A stretch of DNA of 5,594 nucleotides from a virus (lineage: Duplodnaviria > Heunggongvirae > Uroviricota > Caudoviricetes), in IMG/VR virus record IMGVR_UViG_2663762627_000005, positions 1 through 5,594 of that record; one strand, 5' to 3'. Position numbers and translations under genes: made by a program. The first letter of the stretch is position 1; the number at the start of each line of letters is the position of its first letter. The notes under the pieces are model-generated. The model saw only the letters and a program-made list of their open reading frames with translations. It had not been told where the DNA came from and did no database searches. Shown here in pieces: positions 1-5,594 of this stretch.

Positions 1-441
1 GATTACGAAATTATGCCGCCTTTTCGCCAGTTGTCGCGCCGCACGGTGCTGCTCACACCAAAAGAATCTACCTGAACGATCAAGCGCACGGTTTTTTATC
101 ATCTCAGGCTGGTTTTTAATCCCCATCAGCTCCGGTGCTAGTGCAGCGGCCAGTTCTGCACCGTTCTGCTGCATAAAATCATGCAGTCGGTTACGGATGC
201 TGATGCGTTGCACCTCCTCATGTGAGCGGATATAGCGACCGGCGGCCTGATTAATCTCCCATTTTTTTATATCGATGAGCTCACGCAGCATCTGTAAGCA
301 GCGGGAACCCGTTGCATTGTCATCTAGCAATAATTCCTGATATTCCTGCATTGCGGCGGCCAGTTCGGTTTTACGGTTCAGCCACACGGTTTTGTTCGTC
401 TGACAGGCGTCACAGGCCTGCTGTAAGGTCAGAGTGGTCAC
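1..441 (-). CDS. psu: Psu-like polarity suppression / capsid decoration protein, 5' part only (147 codons; 3' end lies beyond the left edge)
   Basis: Reverse-strand frame open from GTG at 441-439 to position 1 with no stop. SD-like AGGAGAG sits 7 nt upstream (on the minus strand). Translation (VTTLTLQQACDACQTNKTVWLNRKTELAAAMQEYQELL...KWEINQAAGRYIRSHEEVQRISIRNRLHDFMQQNGAELAAALAPELMG) closely matches P4 Psu as I recall it. Third gene of the sid-delta-psu order. Not in the supplied ORF track because it is edge-truncated and GTG-initiated. Confidence 0.8.
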   Translation of the reverse strand, partial: MTTLTLQQACDACQTNKTVWLNRKTELAAAMQEYQELLLDDNATGSRCLQMLRELIDIKKWEINQAAGRYIRSHEEVQRISIRNRLHDFMQQNGAELAAALAPELMGIKNQPEMIKNRALDRSGRFFWCEQHRAARQLAKRRHNFVI

Positions 442-457
442 GGGTTGTCTCTCCTGA

Positions 458-703
458 TTAATGGCAGAACGGCGAGCTGTAGCAGCCTTTTACCCGACGG
501 GGTGCCACGGGGGCTGTCGGCACCGGCGCGGGTTTCTCATCGACGACCGGCGAACGTATCACTTCAAAGATGGACTCATGCGTTTTAAATGTCGCCGAGC
601 AGTGCACATTCTGGCACTGCAGGTAACTCTCTTTGACGCTGTCAGACATATAGCGGCTGGTGCGAACGTGTGCCGCCGTGCGGCAGAAAGGGCAGCGCAT
701 CAT
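458..703 (-). CDS. delta: Ogr/Delta-family zinc-finger late transcription activator (81 aa)
   Basis: ORF MMRCPFCRTAAHVRTSRYMSDSVKESYLQCQNVHCSATF... carries the Cys4 pattern C-x2-C-x22-C-x4-C and strong similarity to P2 Ogr (MFHCPLCQHAAHARTSRYI...QCQNVNCSATF). Its ATG overlaps the stop of the upstream gene (ATGA, translational coupling). Confidence 0.88.
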   Translation of the reverse strand: MMRCPFCRTAAHVRTSRYMSDSVKESYLQCQNVHCSATFKTHESIFEVIRSPVVDEKPAPVPTAPVAPRRVKGCYSSPFCH

Positions 704-1437
704 GACAATAACCCCCGAGCCTTCAGGTCAGCTTCACGTTCCTGCATTTTTTCCTGCCAGACTTTTCGCTGAACGGGAGTGGCCGCAACGTCATGCTCCA
801 TATGCGGCAGCGTGGAGGCCGACAGTCCTGTTTTAAACAGCACCGGTTCATCGGTCAGACGGATATCGCAGCCTTTCACCGCCTGCTCAAGTCGGTCTTT
901 CACCTGCTGCATAACGGCCTGTTCTGGCTGGATATAGCCCTGATGCCCGGTGGTATTGGCAAGCGGGTTATTAAGAACCAGTATGTTGAGTTTCATTGCC
1001 CTGACCAGCGCGCTACAGGTATCACGCAGGGCAACATCGAGCTCATGCTCTGCATACTGGCTGAGGACGCTGTAATGTGCCTGACGGTACGCTCTGGCCG
1101 TCCGGTCACAGACTCCCTTAAGGCTGTCCAGCTCAAAAGACAGAACCTCAGCCATATTGTCACATTCCTGCGCCAGTTCCCGCCGTGCCACGCGCGCCAG
1201 ATGGCGTTGTTTCAGCTCGTCGGTAACGACAGCACCACCGGCACGAAAGGCGGCGCGCCATGCGCCGGAATCATTGCCGTTTTCCTGCTCCAGTTCATTT
1301 TTTTGCGTTTGCACCTGGCTGATGGCCGTCGTGGTTTCATCCATACGGCTGGCATTGGCGAGATGCGCCGAGCGGGCAGTCTCAAGGCGTTCCATTGCAG
1401 GTTTAAGGTAGTCGGGAATAACAGCGGTCTGAGTCAT
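700..1437 (-). CDS. sid: Sid-like protein (capsid size determination / external scaffold), 245 aa; assignment by synteny and size
   Basis: First gene downstream of the Delta-type promoter box, followed by delta and psu as in P4. The ATG at 1437-1435 is preceded by GAGGAGA with a 6-nt spacer; the longer track ORF (to 1503) has no SD and would start inside the promoter. 245 aa is close to P4 Sid. Sequence identity to Sid not verified. Confidence 0.6.
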   Translation of the reverse strand: MTQTAVIPDYLKPAMERLETARSAHLANASRMDETTTAISQVQTQKNELEQENGNDSGAWRAAFRAGGAVVTDELKQRHLARVARRELAQECDNMAEVLSFELDSLKGVCDRTARAYRQAHYSVLSQYAEHELDVALRDTCSALVRAMKLNILVLNNPLANTTGHQGYIQPEQAVMQQVKDRLEQAVKGCDIRLTDEPVLFKTGLSASTLPHMEHDVAATPVQRKVWQEKMQEREADLKARGLLS

Positions 1438-1469
1438 GTCGGGTCTCCTCTTCGTTTCAATCTGAGGAG

Positions 1470-1528
1470 ATTCTGCCGCGCCAGACACAACAACACGATT
1501 CATTGGCGTTGTGGCAAAAATGACACAA
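1470..1528 (-). promoter_or_regulatory. Psid-like late promoter: TGT-N12-ACA dyad (1511-1528) plus candidate -10 CAGAAT (1475-1470, minus strand)
   Basis: Exact TGTggcaaaaatgacACA at 1511-1528. The dyad centre is about 55-57 bp upstream of the predicted start site and about 80 bp upstream of the sid ATG, the geometry of Ogr/Delta-activated P2/P4 late promoters. Confidence 0.6.
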
Positions 1529-1613
1529 ACAGACCTTAAAACCCGGCTGGCCAGAGAAAGGTCTCAGGAAACCCTTACTCACTGTTTGTTTTTTTACTAA
1601 TAACTATTCACTA

Positions 1614-1708
1614 CTGTTCACCTTAAGAAAAAAGATAAGTAATACAGTTAATTAAAGGGTGAACAGTTGAAGGTCTGACTGTTCACCGTCTGTTCACCAC
1701 TGTTCACC
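1614..1708. repeat. Cluster of five CTGTTCACC repeats (P4 type I iteron core TGTTCACC); crr-like alpha-binding region
   Basis: Direct copies at 1614-1622, 1679-1687, 1690-1698 and 1700-1708 (the last three phased at 11 and 10 bp), plus an inverted copy GGTGAACAG at 1658-1666. The octamer TGTTCACC is the alpha-protein binding iteron of P4 ori and crr. Confidence 0.7.
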
Positions 1709-1790
1709 CTTCTGTTTTTCTCTGCCGATACCTTTAGACTTTATTTCGATTAAAAATCAAAAATATATAACTAAAAGAAATAGAAATTGC

Positions 1791-1844
1791 TGCATTGTAA
1801 TGCAGTGATTTGCATCTGTTTGCCAGCGTTTGCCTTTGTTTGCC
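1791..1844 (+). promoter_or_regulatory. Candidate operator/PLL-region elements: perfect palindrome TGCATTGTAATGCA and three GTTTGCC direct repeats phased at exactly 10 bp
   Basis: Palindrome at 1791-1804. GTTTGCC at 1818-1824, 1828-1834 and 1838-1844. Lies 130-180 bp upstream of the vis/alpA start, with an AT-rich tract (1740-1790) just upstream. Confidence 0.4.
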
Positions 1845-1973
1845 ATAGCGAAAAGTCAATGTTTGTTTCCACGAAAATCTCACATGACCTGAGGAAAAAT
1901 ATAGACATAATAAGGAGCTACCCGAAGCCGGACGGACACGACCGGCACCGTATGGACTTTATGAGGTAGCCCG

Positions 1974-2240
1974 ATGCACACCGCTTTTTCTTCCCCGTCT
2001 TCTGCCCCTGCCGCGCCGCTGATGCCGGTCTCTGACGCCGTTCATGAGCGTTTTATTCGTCTGCCTGAAGTGATGCATTTATGCGGCCTGTCTCGTTCGA
2101 CCATTTATGACCTCATCAGCCGGGAAGCTTTCCCGAAGCAAATCTCCCTCGGCGGTAAAAACGTGGCGTGGGCGCAGTCTGAAATCACCGCATGGATGGC
2201 GGATCGCATTGCCGAACGTAACCGGGGTTATGACGCATGA
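1974..2240 (+). CDS. vis: AlpA/Vis-family small DNA-binding regulator (88 aa), MerR-like HTH
   Basis: ATG at 1974 with GAGG 7 nt upstream. The protein contains [50 protein letters not shown], characteristic of prophage AlpA/Vis/excisionase-like regulators. Same size (88 aa) and position as P4 vis (orf88) as I recall. Confidence 0.85.
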
Positions 2241-2788
2241 TGATGACCGTTCAGCAAACAGCCCCTTTTTCTGGCTTGCTTCTTTTCATCGTTTCCAGGT
2301 ATAGTTTTCCCGCTGCCGCAAAATCGGCAGCCGGGCGTAGGAACCCGAGTTACTTATTGGCGACACCAGACGCGCCATGCGTCTTTTTTTACGTCGTTGC
2401 TCAGGCACACCCATTTTCCGGGCTGTGGTGCTTATACCTTAGCCCCTGTCAGATAATGGTGGTCCGGGCGGGGCAGCCTTCGGGCTGGCCGGTTTCCAAT
2501 AAGGCCGGTATTCCTACCCCCGTTCGGGTCACCACCCATGAGCGTAGGAACTCCGGTGGTGGCAATTACCGCTACTTATTGGAGGTTGCCGCTATGGCTA
2601 CGACCCTCACCCTGCCACACCCGCAGTTTGTCTTTGTGTTTGCCGCCGTTCGTCGCGCAGACCGTAAACCCCGTATCTGTATGCTTCGCACCGTTGCCGG
2701 TGATGAACACGCTGCACGTCTTTCCCTCGTTCGCGATTATGTCCTCTCGTTCGCTGGCCGTCTGCCGGTTGCGGAGGTGTGCGCATGA
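2237..2788 (+). CDS. eta: Eta-like long ORF (183 aa) whose terminal part is kil; starts with three consecutive ATG codons and reads through seqA, the CI-like RNA and seqC
   Basis: About 119 codons stay open across a region that is clearly an RNA regulatory locus, in frame with kil. The start overlaps the vis stop (ATGA) and is followed by ATGATG. This matches the P4 description of eta as a nested ORF beginning upstream of PLE with three possible start codons. Whether it is translated is untested. Confidence 0.45.
2276..2305 (+). promoter_or_regulatory. Sigma70-type promoter, PLE-like: -35 TTGCTT (2276-2281), 18-bp spacer, -10 TATAGT (2300-2305)
   Basis: Good hexamers with correct spacing. 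Placed just upstream of seqA and the CI-like RNA and just inside the eta ORF, as expected for the constitutive early promoter of a P4-type left operon. Confidence 0.55.
2335..2361 (+). promoter_or_regulatory. seqA-like target of the immunity RNA (GTAGGAA ... CTTATTGG)
   Basis: GCGTAGGAACccgagttaCTTATTGG is complementary in two blocks to the seqB segment of the downstream RNA (CCAATAAG ... TTCCTAC at 2496-2517). Confidence 0.65.
2368..2390 (+). terminator. Intrinsic-terminator-like hairpin (AGACGC / gccat loop / GCGTCT) followed by a T7 tract
   Basis: 6-bp stem at 2368-2373 and 2379-2384 with a T run at 2384-2390, immediately downstream of seqA in the leader. Orientation-specific: there is no U-tract on the other strand. 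Confidence 0.4.
2455..2537 (+). ncRNA. cI: CI-like immunity RNA (about 80 nt) carrying seqB; boundaries approximate
   Basis: A terminal helix can form between GGUGGUCCGGGCGGGG (2458-2473) and CCCCCGUUCGGGUCACCACC (2517-2536). Internal hairpin CAGCC-UUCG-GGCUG (2474-2488). The seqB segment CCAATAAGgccggtaTTCCTAC (2496-2517) is complementary to both seqA and seqC. P4 CI RNA is a processed leader RNA of about 79 nt. Confidence 0.6.
2541..2585 (+). promoter_or_regulatory. seqC-like target of the immunity RNA, overlapping the kil Shine-Dalgarno
   Basis: AGCGTAGGAAC (2541-2551) and CTTATTGG (2575-2582) repeat the seqA blocks. The GGAGG SD of kil is at 2581-2585, so CI/seqC pairing would occlude the kil ribosome-binding site. 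Confidence 0.6.
2594..2788 (+). CDS. kil: Kil-like small protein (64 aa), first translated gene downstream of the PLE-like promoter
   Basis: ATG at 2594 with GGAGG 8 nt upstream. 64 codons ([64 protein letters not shown]). P4 kil is 65 aa at the same position. Function inferred from position only. Confidence 0.6.
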
Positions 2789-3012
2789 GACACACCACCA
2801 TTACTGCCCGTGACCTCGAATGCCTTGAACATATGCGCAACGTCGGTCAGCTCGTCAGCGAACTGATGCAGGTGCAGGACTGTGCCACTGTTCGCCGTGA
2901 CCCGGCGCAGCAGTTACAGCTCACCTCCGTGATTTACCTTATGACCGCCCAGCTCGACGGCATGGTCGAACGCTGCAATCAGCACTGGCTGACCGGGGAG
3001 GACAACGTATGA
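2785..3012 (+). CDS. Hypothetical small protein (75 aa from ATG 2785; the track's GTG 2779 start gives 77 aa)
   Basis: GGAGG at 2773-2777 is 7 nt upstream of ATG 2785. The ATG overlaps the kil stop (ATGA). No recognisable motif. Occupies the slot where P4 carries small left-operon genes such as eps. Confidence 0.6.
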
Positions 3013-3329
3013 AACAGCCATTACCGCCCGTATTACGCGCCGCGCTCTATCGCCGTGCAGTGGCCTGTGCCTGGCTGACCCTGTGCGAACGCCAGCACCG
3101 TTACCCGCGCCTCACCCTTGACGCGCTGGAAAGCGCCATTGCTGCCGAGCTGGAGGGCTTCTACCTGCGCCAGCATGGAGAGGAAAAAGGTCGCCAGATT
3201 GCCTGTGCACTGCTCGAAGATTTAATGGAAGCCGGACCACTGAAAGCTGCCCCGTCGCTGTCCTTCCTCGGGCTCGCGGTGATGGATGAACTTTGCGCCC
3301 GCCATATCACCGCACCGGTACTGCACTGA
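3009..3329 (+). CDS. Hypothetical protein (106 aa), translationally coupled to the upstream ORF
   Basis: GGGGAGG at 2995-3001 is 7 nt upstream of ATG 3009. The ATG overlaps the upstream stop (ATGA). The ORF ends 14 nt before the primase start. No recognisable motif. Confidence 0.65.
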
Positions 3330-3343
3330 GGGAGAAAATAACA

Positions 3344-5440
3344 ATGAAAATGAACGTAACGGAAACCGTAAAACAGGCGTGCGGTCACTGGCCGCGTATT
3401 CTCCCGGCGCTGGGTGTGAAGGTGATTAAAAACCGGCATCAGGCCTGTCCGGTGTGCGGCGGCTCTGACCGCTTTCGCTTTGACGATAAAGAGGGGCGCG
3501 GGACGTGGTACTGCAATCAGTGCGGCGCGGGTGACGGGCTTAAGCTGGTCGAAAAGGTGTTCGGTGTAAATCCGTCTGAGGCCGCCCGGAAGGTGAACGC
3601 CGTCACCGGTAATCTGTCGCCGGTTGCCCCGGAAGCGATTGCGGCCGCAGAAGCCGGAACCGATGCCGACCTCCAGGCGGCGGCCGCGCTGGCCGTCAGG
3701 CTCATGGAGAAAACCCGCCCGGCCACCGGCAACGCCTACCTCACCCGCAAGGGTTTCCCCGACCGGGAATGTCTGATGCTCACAGCCATACATAAAACCG
3801 GCGGCGTGACGTTCCGCGCCGGTGATGTGGTTGTCCCGCTGTATGACGATACCGGGGCGCTGGTTAACGTTCAGCTTATTAATGCTGATGGTCTCAAACG
3901 CACCCTGAAAGGCGGTCAGGTCAAAGGGGCATGTCATATCATCGAGGGGCAGAAACAGCCCGGAAAACGCCTGTGGATTGCGGAGGGTTATGCGACCGCG
4001 CTCACCGTGCATCAACTGACCGGCGAAACCGTCATGGTGGCGCTGTCCTCCGTGAACCTCCTTTCTCTGGCGAGCCTTGCCCGTCAGAAGTCCCCGGCCT
4101 GTCAGATTGTCCTCGCCGCCGACCGTGACCTTAACGGCGACGGCCAGAACAAAGCCGCAGCGGCCGCAGGAGCCTGCGAGGGCATTGTTGCCCTGCCACC
4201 GGTGTTCGGTGACTGGAATGATGCGTTTATAGAAAAAGGTGAGGAAGCCACGCGGAAAGCCATTCATAACGCCATCCGGCCACCGGCACAAAGTCCGTTC
4301 GACACCATGAGCGAGGCGGAATTTACCGCCATGAGCGCCAGCGACAAGGCGATGCGGGTGCATGAGCATTACGGCGAAGCGCTGGCTGTGGACGCGAACG
4401 GCCAGCTTCTGTCCCGCTATGAAAACGGCATCTGGAAAAATATCCCTGCCGCCACTTTTTCACGAAATGTTGCTGATTTATTCCGGCGCGTGCGTGCCCC
4501 GTTCTCGTCGGGGAGAATCACCTCAGTGGTGGAGACGCTGAAGCTGATTATTCCTCAGCAGGAGGCACCGGCGCGCCGTCTGATTGGTTTTCGCAACGGG
4601 GTACTTGATACCCAAAGCGGCCTGTTCAGCCCGCACAGTAAATCACACTGGCTGCGCACGCTGTGCGACGTGGATTTTACCCCGCCGGTGGAAGGGGAAA
4701 CGCTGGAGACCCACGCGCCAAACTTCTGGCGCTGGCTCGACCGTGCCGCCGGTGGCAGACCGGAAAAACGCGACGTGATACTTGCCGCGCTGTTTATGGT
4801 GCTGGCGAACCGCTACGACTGGCAGCTCTTTCTCGAAGTCACCGGTCCCGGCGGAAGCGGTAAAAGTATTCTCGCCGAAATCGCGACCCTGCTCGCCGGA
4901 GAGGATAACGCCACGTCAGCCGATATCGACACACTGGAAGACCCGCGCAAGCGCGCATCCCTGACTGGTTTCTCGCTAATCCGTCTGCCTGACCAGGAAA
5001 AATGGAGCGGTGACGGGGCAGGACTCAAAGCCATCACCGGCGGCGATGCGGTCTCAGTTGACCCGAAATACCAGAACCCGTACTCAACACATATTCCGGC
5101 GGTGATTCTGGCCGTGAACAATAACCCGATGCGCTTCACTGACCGCAGCGGCGGTGTGTCACGCCGCCGGGTGATTATTCATTTCCCGGAGCAGATTGCC
5201 CCGGAGGAACGCGACCCGCAGCTCAGGGATAAAATTGCGCGCGAGCTGGCCGTTATCGTGCGCCAGCTTATGCAGAAATTCAGCGACCCGATGGCAGCGC
5301 GCACTCTGCTCCAGTCGCAGCAGAACTCCGATGAAGCGCTCAGCATCAAGCGTGATGCTGACCCGACGTTTGATTTTTGTGGCTATCTGGAAATGCTGCC
5401 GCAGACCAACGGGATGTTGGTAATGGTGCCAACTTACTGA
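3344..5440 (+). CDS. alpha: P4 alpha-type primase-helicase, C-terminus apparently replaced by IS1-derived codons (native codons end near 5418)
   Basis: Start ATG 3344 (MKMNVTETV...) with GAGGGAG upstream; the track's earlier ATG 3293 lies inside the preceding gene. Zinc-ribbon CPVCGG...WYCNQCG, primase EGYATA motif, TOPRIM-like AADRDLNGDG, and Walker A GPGGSGKS (about 4844-4867). The last 7 codons and the stop (5420-5440) lie inside the IS1 terminal inverted repeat. 699 aa versus about 777 aa for P4 alpha. Confidence 0.88.
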   Translation: MKMNVTETVKQACGHWPRILPALGVKVIKNRHQACPVCGGSDRFRFDDKEGRGTWYCNQCGAGDGLKLVEKVFGVNPSEAARKVNAVTGNLSPVAPEAIAAAEAGTDADLQAAAALAVRLMEKTRPATGNAYLTRKGFPDRECLMLTAIHKTGGVTFRAGDVVVPLYDDTGALVNVQLINADGLKRTLKGGQVKGACHIIEGQKQPGKRLWIAEGYATALTVHQLTGETVMVALSSVNLLSLASLARQKSPACQIVLAADRDLNGDGQNKAAAAAGACEGIVALPPVFGDWNDAFIEKGEEATRKAIHNAIRPPAQSPFDTMSEAEFTAMSASDKAMRVHEHYGEALAVDANGQLLSRYENGIWKNIPAATFSRNVADLFRRVRAPFSSGRITSVVETLKLIIPQQEAPARRLIGFRNGVLDTQSGLFSPHSKSHWLRTLCDVDFTPPVEGETLETHAPNFWRWLDRAAGGRPEKRDVILAALFMVLANRYDWQLFLEVTGPGGSGKSILAEIATLLAGEDNATSADIDTLEDPRKRASLTGFSLIRLPDQEKWSGDGAGLKAITGGDAVSVDPKYQNPYSTHIPAVILAVNNNPMRFTDRSGGVSRRRVIIHFPEQIAPEERDPQLRDKIARELAVIVRQLMQKFSDPMAARTLLQSQQNSDEALSIKRDADPTFDFCGYLEMLPQTNGMLVMVPTY

Positions 5441-5594
5441 TTTAGTGTATCATGGTGTTTTTGAGGTGCTCCCGTGGCTTCCATCTCCATCAGTTGTCCC
5501 TCCTGCTCAGCTACTGAAGGCGTGGTGCGTAACGGTAAAAGTACTGCCGGACATCAGCGCTATCTCTGCTCTCACTGCCGTAAAACATGGCAAC
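5419..5594 (+). mobile_element. IS1 insertion sequence, left end (terminal inverted repeat GGTAATGGTGCCAACTTACTGAT) and start of insA; continues beyond the window
   Basis: 5419-5441 matches the IS1 terminal inverted repeat apart from a few variant positions, followed by the characteristic TTTAGTGTAT...GGTGTTTTTGAGGTGCTCC leader and insA. Confidence 0.9.
5474..5594 (+). CDS. insA: IS1 InsA (transposition repressor / N-terminal transposase part), 5' portion only
   Basis: GTG start at 5474. Translation (V/M)[39 protein letters not shown] matches the InsA N-terminus (zinc-finger CPSC...CSHC). ORF runs off the right edge. Confidence 0.9.

Follow-up and report, generated by a model that had tools for sequence, protein, structure and literature searches.

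How the immunity RNA of a P4-type satellite prophage keeps silent the putative toxic-peptide gene that follows it, by acting on translation, on transcription termination or on both, is the question raised by the leader region of the 5,594-nt stretch of DNA analysed here (positions 1 to 5,594 of IMG/VR virus record IMGVR_UViG_2663762627_000005; this whole stretch is called the window). In this leader, a short antisense RNA (CI RNA) precedes a two-part target, seqC, and seqC in turn precedes the gene kil. The original prediction was that the second half of seqC runs into the Shine-Dalgarno sequence of kil, and that pairing of a CI-like RNA with seqC would gate kil translation as well as termination. 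The locus is probably the immunity switch of a P4-type satellite prophage, operating as published for P4; this reading is built on observations made here: RNA-target complementarity and its covariation, a target invariably fused to the Shine-Dalgarno sequence, and the family membership of both the RNA and Kil.

Predicted pairing of the CI RNA with seqC over the kil Shine-Dalgarno sequence

Direct reading of the sequence places the second half of seqC (CTTATTGG) at 2575-2582, the GGAGG at 2581-2585 and the kil ATG at 2594-2596, in full agreement with the original prediction. The overlap amounts to 2 nt (G2581 and G2582) and a spacer of 8 nt separates GGAGG from the ATG. The window contains three copies of the bipartite motif GTAGGAA-N-CTTATTGG, namely seqA (2337-2360, + strand), seqC (2544-2582, + strand) and, in reverse complement, seqB (2496-2517), with 0 expected in 200 shuffles; CTTATTGG alone is also found three times, against 0.08 expected. 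As in P4-type immunity, seqB is complementary to one upstream target (seqA) and one downstream target (seqC).

The CI-like RNA of the original prediction proved to be a bona fide member of the C4 antisense RNA family (Rfam RF01695). A scan of the + strand against Rfam gave three adjacent RNA elements (Table 1) which, in P4 terms, are seqA with terminator t1, plus the CI RNA. The minimum free energy (MFE) fold of the CI RNA reproduces the C4 family structure and leaves two segments unpaired, both perfectly complementary to the two halves of seqC. Opening of these segments costs 2.4 kcal/mol for the loop (seqB half 2) and 0.01 kcal/mol for the junction (seqB half 1). In addition, UUU at 2493-2495 can extend the loop helix over AGG at 2583-2585, with A2583 in an A-U pair and G2584 and G2585 in G.U pairs. 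The extended duplex has 9 Watson-Crick and 2 G.U pairs, covers the entire GGAGG and reaches -11.1 kcal/mol, compared with -7.6 kcal/mol for the 8-bp core. These energies were taken from duplex and opening calculations; the loop-target contact is a pseudoknot under the RNAcofold model.

A different arrangement is seen in the MFE fold of the unprocessed leader (2312-2625), where seqA and seqB form a cis helix and the CI stem no longer closes (-131 kcal/mol, z = -2.6). Since cis and trans pairing compete in such folding models, the order of folding and processing should matter.

Conservation of the pairing in 45 leaders

The same geometry was followed in related loci by a scan with the Kil alignment, which at one genome per species gave 44 loci from Kluyvera, Enterobacter, Citrobacter, Klebsiella, Raoultella, Edwardsiella, Serratia, Mangrovibacter, Buttiauxella and others; 45 leaders, the window and P4 included, were aligned with MAFFT. 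In this alignment, 94.4% of the seqB-seqC cells are paired, compared with 37-48% when the partners are slid by 1-3 columns. Cells in which both partners have changed number 193, against 61 +/- 6 in shuffles, and none of the 500 shuffles reaches 193. Such both-sided changes are present in 12 of the 15 core pairs; for half 1, all cells (100%) are paired and double changes affect 6 of its 7 pairs. The residual unpaired cells come from five loci with a 1-nt register shift introduced by MAFFT and, after correction of the register, pairing is complete in every one of the 45 loci (7/7 for half 1 and 8/8 for half 2), with at most one G.U.

The half-sites themselves vary: the 45 loci combine 6 half-1 alleles with 11 half-2 alleles in 21 ways, the half-2 alleles including CTTATTGG, TTCACAGG, AACTATGG, CTTCAAGG, CTCAATGG, AACATTGG, TCCATCGG, TCTAACGG and GTTATCGG. 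The window's own pair, GTAGGAA/CTTATTGG, is found in one other locus (L036). Whatever the allele, half 2 ends in the GG that opens the Shine-Dalgarno sequence (45/45 loci), the latter being GGAGG in 39 loci and GGAGA, GGAGT or GGAAA in 6. Five loci have a distance of 10 nt, not 11, between half-site and ATG; their overlap is unchanged, the Shine-Dalgarno sequence having followed the half-site and not the ATG. An extension over AGG is available to a variable degree: among 44 distinct sequences, 32 have the U-A pair, 25 one of the two G.U pairs and 39 the other. The occlusion supported in every locus consists of two Shine-Dalgarno bases and the eight bases immediately upstream, a stretch that lies within the footprint of the initiating 30S subunit. 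Complementarity, compensatory changes across the 45 loci and coverage of the Shine-Dalgarno sequence all argue for the predicted sequestration of the kil ribosome-binding site by the CI RNA.

The two half-sites assort independently (loci L004-L047 and the window), even though each half consists of three interleaved copies, in seqA, seqB and seqC, that are forced to change together. The upstream target is cognate to seqB in 44 of the 45 loci. The sole non-cognate seqA was found in Mangrovibacter yixingensis (L028): about 260 nt upstream of kil, seqA reads GTAGGAA/CTCAATGG, while seqB and seqC both carry GTGGAAA/TCTAACGG, so that seqC has remained matched. This locus is apparently a natural recombinant with a crossover between seqA and cI.

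It is tentatively proposed, at somewhat less than even chances, that coverage of the Shine-Dalgarno sequence fixes a constant anchor in every P4-like immunity specificity (GG in seqC, CC in seqB and GG in seqA), the other half-site bases evolving freely and assorting independently. This would amount to a two-module combinatorial heteroimmunity code with one fixed point set by the ribosome. The invariant Shine-Dalgarno anchor over 11 alleles, the independent assortment of half-sites and the recombinant locus are possibly new. An invariant target/Shine-Dalgarno fusion (45/45) combined with modular alleles could aid the prediction of cross-immunity among P4-like satellites.

Kil, eta and the proposed course of repression

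The peptide encoded by kil is 83% identical to P4 Kil and matches the NCBIfam model NF033153, 'host cell division inhibitor Icd-like', with 78.3 bits; the same model is matched by P4 Kil, P1 Icd and N15 Icd. BLASTP gave no alignment between Kil and P1 Icd, their relationship being at the profile level only (NF033153). By this family match, Kil would be an Icd-like cell-division inhibitor, which agrees with the predicted coupling of immunity to a putative toxic peptide. As in P4 immunity, seqC is followed by kil as the first gene, which lies within a longer open reading frame (ORF), eta, that starts at the vis stop (vis TGA 2238-2240 overlapping the eta ATG at 2237).

The eta product contains a Phage_ASH domain (residues 22-131) and an Icd-like domain (131-178). 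The Pfam Phage_ASH and RefSeq 'transcriptional repressor' labels sit on the ORF that overlies the CI/C4 RNA gene, in the window (2237-2788) as well as in L001 (2017-2433), L048, L050 and L053. This labelling dates from the era when cI was taken for a protein, and much of the conservation of the Phage_ASH 'protein family' is probably RNA conservation.

Start and stop codons overlap as ATGA at 2237-2240 (vis/eta), 2785-2788 (kil/75-aa ORF) and 3009-3012 (75-aa ORF/DUF5375), the left operon here being made of kil, the 75-aa ORF, DUF5375 and alpha. This chain suggests translational coupling along the whole left operon. Because the genes after kil are chained by these overlaps, kil or eta would be the ribosome entry point of the operon.

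The Rho-dependent terminator fragment of P4, timm, corresponds to X51522 8365-8209 (PMC3177188). Since Kil residue 1 also maps to X51522 8365, the equivalent of timm would be the first 157 nt of kil (2594-2750), a function that is assigned by homology. The 5' region of kil (2590-2649) holds 38% C and 22% G, compared with 28.7% and 27.5% overall, for a C/G ratio of 1.8.

The translational block and the Rho step are carried over from experiments on P4 and P1. On that model, a constitutive promoter (-10 at 2300-2305) would transcribe a leader carrying seqA, the CI RNA precursor, seqC and kil, and the processed CI RNA would expose its hairpin loop (2493-2503) and its junction (2511-2517). The loop would then pair with seqC at 2575-2582, ending inside the kil Shine-Dalgarno sequence, and the junction with 2544-2550. 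Because the whole duplex would occupy the region that the 30S subunit must bind, kil would remain untranslated. Its untranslated C-rich start would be exposed to Rho, transcription would end inside kil (approximately 2594-2750), and the translationally coupled downstream genes (the ORF at 2785-3012, DUF5375 and the alpha primase) would stay off. Transcripts from the upstream late promoter, in which translation passes from vis to eta, would be insensitive to immunity because ribosomes run through seqA, cI and seqC. By analogy, then, both the repression of kil by the CI RNA and premature termination (timm, t4) may be expected in the window from the pairing over the Shine-Dalgarno sequence and the C-rich 5' end of kil. 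Such a course would explain how a bipartite RNA contact of 15 bp can silence a toxic peptide gene together with an entire satellite replication operon.

In 1999, Forti and co-workers reportedly found that kil expression of P4 is under immunity control and that no termination takes place at timm when the kil region is translated; their abstract is said to state that 'P4 immunity might negatively control kil translation'. The mechanism is in any case already known, from the published P4 model and from the homologous P1 c4/icd site, which is annotated likewise. As far as the summary of Forti et al. 1999 in PMC10111431 goes, eta translation prevents termination in P4 and Kil is made from read-through transcripts; the P4 immunity model is also summarised in PMC4825925. 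Consequently, the two halves of the original prediction have a different standing. Gating of kil translation by the immunity RNA is supported, and the phrase 'as well as' termination has to be reworded: in the P4 model these are not parallel outputs, the translational block being what permits Rho-dependent termination at timm inside kil.

Alternative explanations

The chief effect of CI RNA pairing with seqC could also be on RNA polymerase: a hairpin lies between the two half-sites, and the three parts together would make up a factor-independent terminator of the P4 't4' type, with occlusion of the Shine-Dalgarno sequence as a by-product or minor back-up. A terminator-like hairpin (2554-2571, tail CUACUUAUUG) does lie exactly between the half-sites, and a hairpin is kept at this place with differing sequences, as judged by eye (GTGGC/GCTAC, ATAGC/GCTAT, TAGCTG/CAGCTA and GTAGTTT/AAACTAC). 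At seqA, moreover, the bipartite target directly precedes a canonical intrinsic terminator, and Briani and co-workers (in 2000) are reported to have seen CI-enhanced termination at t1 in vitro. The inter-half hairpin is terminator-like in the window's allele because of its U-rich tail CUUAUU, and is a possible counterpart of P4 t4. However, such a tail is present in some alleles only, half 2 being TTCACAGG, CTCAATGG or TCCATCGG elsewhere. RNAalifold found no meaningful consensus for the 60-nt leader (-2.1 kcal/mol), the alleles differing in the register of this hairpin. An effect on polymerase also leaves unexplained why target and Shine-Dalgarno sequence are fused in 45/45 P4-like loci and in P1, N15, PY54 and phiKO2, and why the Shine-Dalgarno sequence shifts with the half-site when the spacing changes. 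As the principal effect of the pairing, direct termination is therefore unlikely, whereas as a parallel layer it is real and not mutually exclusive with a translational block.

The leader might instead close the kil ribosome-binding site by itself, through pairing of CUCC (2551-2554) with GGAG (2581-2584), which would make the CI RNA irrelevant to kil translation. Both the MFE fold and the ensemble of 2540-2625 pair the Shine-Dalgarno sequence (probability of being unpaired 0.11, which is also the median over the 45 loci), and the motif YUCC just 3' of seqC half 1 is nearly invariant. This effect is no stronger than chance, since 25% of shuffled flanks also hide the Shine-Dalgarno sequence and a change of CUCC to AAAA raises its probability of being unpaired only to 0.22. 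Both strands being invariant, the helix shows no covariation, and RNAalifold gives no such consensus helix. P4 kil is reportedly expressed, and lethal, when immunity is absent (Forti and co-workers, in 1999). Intrinsic sequestration by CUCC was rejected on the comparison with shuffled flanks, and we regard it as very improbable. Less credible still, to the point of being negligible, is the view that genome compactness produced the overlap by chance, with no consequence for regulation. Only 2 nt of overlap are universally conserved, but these are kept in 45/45 loci with 11 half-site sequences and in four more distant phages, and on these comparative sequence data coincidence is excluded.

Several points nevertheless weigh against translational control by the CI RNA as the main gate of a working switch. 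The universally conserved pairs cover only two Shine-Dalgarno bases, the extension over AGG being absent or partial in about one third of the alleles. The terminal GG of half 2 is invariant in seqA as well, which has no Shine-Dalgarno sequence. Its invariance is consequently not, by itself, proof of a ribosome-related constraint, and is to be expected if seqB must match both targets. For P4, Briani and co-workers reportedly proposed in 2000 that the Rho-independent t4, between cI and timm, is the main terminator in lysogens, and timm is said not to be essential for lysogeny; on these results, the translational route may be a secondary layer. Finally, the prophage is probably replication-defective because its alpha gene is cut by IS1, and its immunity switch may be a relic under relaxed selection, the region itself being intact.

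Identity of the element and features of the window

The window is 99.6% identical to an E. coli chromosomal segment adjoining ssrA. In a search of phage records, its central 1.5 kb shows 79% DNA identity to satellite phage P4 over 81% of its length, and the window and P4 share the gene order psu-delta-sid, then vis-eta/kil-...-alpha. On the 99.6% identical locus, the Prokaryotic Genome Annotation Pipeline (PGAP) lists a first group made of an integrase, psu, an ogr/delta-like gene and sid. On the opposite strand there, it lists a helix-turn-helix regulator, an 'Icd-like protein', a hypothetical protein, a DUF5375 protein and an IS1-interrupted primase-helicase. By this annotation the satellite gene set psu, delta, sid, alpA/vis, alpha primase and integrase is present, with alpha truncated by IS1. 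The window corresponds to the immunity and leader region of a P4-like E. coli prophage integrated at ssrA, and the element carries an immunity specificity other than that of P4.

An IS1-family element begins at about 5418 (seen to 5594) and truncates the alpha primase-helicase gene, which starts at 3344; in the 99.6% identical locus alpha is marked as a pseudogene by PGAP and is followed by an IS1A transposase. The ORF downstream of kil (2785-3012) encodes 75 aa and has no family match. Between sid and vis, TGTTCACC occurs five times against 0.14 expected, and GTTTGCC three times in tandem with 10-nt spacing. A weak let-7 match of Rfam at 1643-1724 was rejected as an artefact of these origin-type repeats.

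The remaining features of the leader are collected in Table 1. As in P4 immunity, an intrinsic terminator of the t1 type lies directly 3' of seqA. The counterpart of the P4 PLE promoter was missed by a generic sigma-70 promoter scan and is placed by homology only.

Table 1. Features of the window and the basis on which each was placed
Feature	Position	Strand	Basis and remarks
sid-vis repeats	1615-1708 and 1818-1844		counterparts of type 1 and type 2 repeats of the P4 origin
vis/alpA-like gene	1974-2240	+	ORF; Pfam Phage_AlpA, 72 bits; position as P4 ORF88
eta	2237-2788	+	183-aa ORF through seqA, cI and seqC, ending as kil; PGAP 'Icd-like protein'
c4-a1b1	2299-2351	+	Rfam, 50.1 bits
-10 hexamer TATAGT	2300-2305	+	counterpart of P4 PLE promoter; homology, aligned with X02534 'consensus -10'; conserved across loci
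isrK	2312-2389	+	Rfam, 75.9 bits
seqA, upstream CI RNA target	2337-2360	+	half 1 GTAGGAA 2337-2343; half 2 CTTATTGG 2353-2360; inside isrK and c4-a1b1 matches
intrinsic terminator after seqA	2368-2391	+	P4 t1 counterpart; hairpin plus T7; terminator scan; 3' part of isrK model
CI RNA gene, C4 antisense RNA family	2452-2539	+	Rfam RF01695, 83.4 bits (gathering score 45), full length 1-87
seqB half 2	2493-2503	+	12-nt loop of second CI hairpin; CCAAUAAG (2496-2503) pairs with seqC 2575-2582
seqB half 1, UUCCUAC	2511-2517	+	single-stranded junction before closing stem; pairs with seqC 2544-2550
seqC half 1, GTAGGAA	2544-2550	+	
inter-half seqC hairpin	2554-2575	+	terminator scan 2554-2571; MFE stem 2559-2563/2571-2575; U-rich tail CUUAUU
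seqC half 2, CTTATTGG	2575-2582	+	last two bases are first two of Shine-Dalgarno sequence
kil Shine-Dalgarno sequence, GGAGG	2581-2585	+	8 nt 5' of ATG; duplex with anti-Shine-Dalgarno sequence -10.0 kcal/mol
kil	2594-2788	+	64-aa Icd-like peptide nested in eta; stop overlaps ATG of next ORF (ATGA 2785-2788)
putative timm equivalent	2594-2750	+	P4 Rho-dependent terminator fragment; first 157 nt of kil; function by homology

Comparison with known systems

The closest system is P4 itself, described by the Ghisotti/Deho laboratory, with its CI RNA, seqA and seqC, kil nested in eta, and the terminators t1, t4 and timm. The leader layout is the same (-10, seqA, t1, CI, seqC, Shine-Dalgarno sequence, ATG), and at the kil start P4 reads TTCACAGGAGG-N8-ATG, as in the layout of the window. 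The two differ in immunity specificity (GTAGGAA/CTTATTGG in the window, GTGAGAA/TTCACAGG in P4) and in the spacer between t1 and CI, which is about 45 nt shorter in the window. Furthermore, the 75-aa ORF does not resemble epsilon, the P4 protein for helper derepression, and the window lacks a counterpart of P4 orf151. Two more differences are the truncation of alpha by IS1 and the integration of the element at ssrA.

We know of no proposal, for P4, of regulation in the direction of trans-activation as in the IsrK/anti-Q module of Salmonella prophage Gifsy-1. The isrK model is matched, with 75.9 bits, by seqA plus terminator of the window, and in Gifsy-1 a short RNA activates the translation of a read-through transcript in trans (PMC4825925).

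The immI region of P1/P7 (c4 RNA, a1/b1 and a2/b2 targets, icd, ant1/2) shares with the window the Rfam C4 family and bipartite targets. In the RefSeq record of P1, b2 ends 10 nt before the icd ATG and bears the note 'repression of icd ant translation'. The site reads GTTAGTGA|GG-N8-ATG and runs into the GAGG of icd, and the C4 loop, UUUCACUAAC, has a U-rich 5' side like that of the window. P1 and the window thus share a geometry in which the b2 target of a C4 RNA lies at the ribosome-binding site of an icd gene. Biere, Citron and Schuster are said to have described, in 1992, transcriptional control via translational repression in c4/icd/ant of P1. The cargo, on the other hand, is the antirepressor ant in P1/P7 and replication genes in the window, and P1/P7 have neither an overlapping long ORF of the eta type nor an upstream late promoter. 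Because the downstream genes are the 75-aa ORF without a family, DUF5375 and the alpha primase, and not the ant1/ant2 that follow icd in P1, the window functions in the manner of immI without being an immI operon.

The secondary immunity regions of the linear plasmid-prophages N15, PY54 and phiKO2 (CA RNA, icd, antA/antB) likewise show isrK-like, c4-a1b1 and C4 matches followed by an Icd-like ORF, and their Icd proteins are 41-47% identical to the Kil of the window. Half 2 of the target abuts or overlaps the icd Shine-Dalgarno sequence in all three; in N15 and phiKO2 this sequence begins 0-2 nt past the paired stretch, and not inside it as in the window, and the cargo of the three phages is an antirepressor. 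Pasteurella phage Pmp7 (L051) and Providencia phage PSTCR3 (L052) encode Icd-like ORFs 38-45% identical to Kil, with no C4-family RNA detected upstream of them at E < 0.01; they were left out of the geometry comparison on that ground, and a divergent RNA, or some other form of control, may act on their icd genes.

Taken together, no new mechanism is involved here, the same design being documented for P4, P1/P7 and N15. Because P1, N15, PY54 and phiKO2 share the geometry, and the P1 and N15 Icd proteins as well as both Kil proteins match NF033153, the placement of the target on the Shine-Dalgarno sequence is, judged from these sequences, ancestral to the whole C4-icd module.

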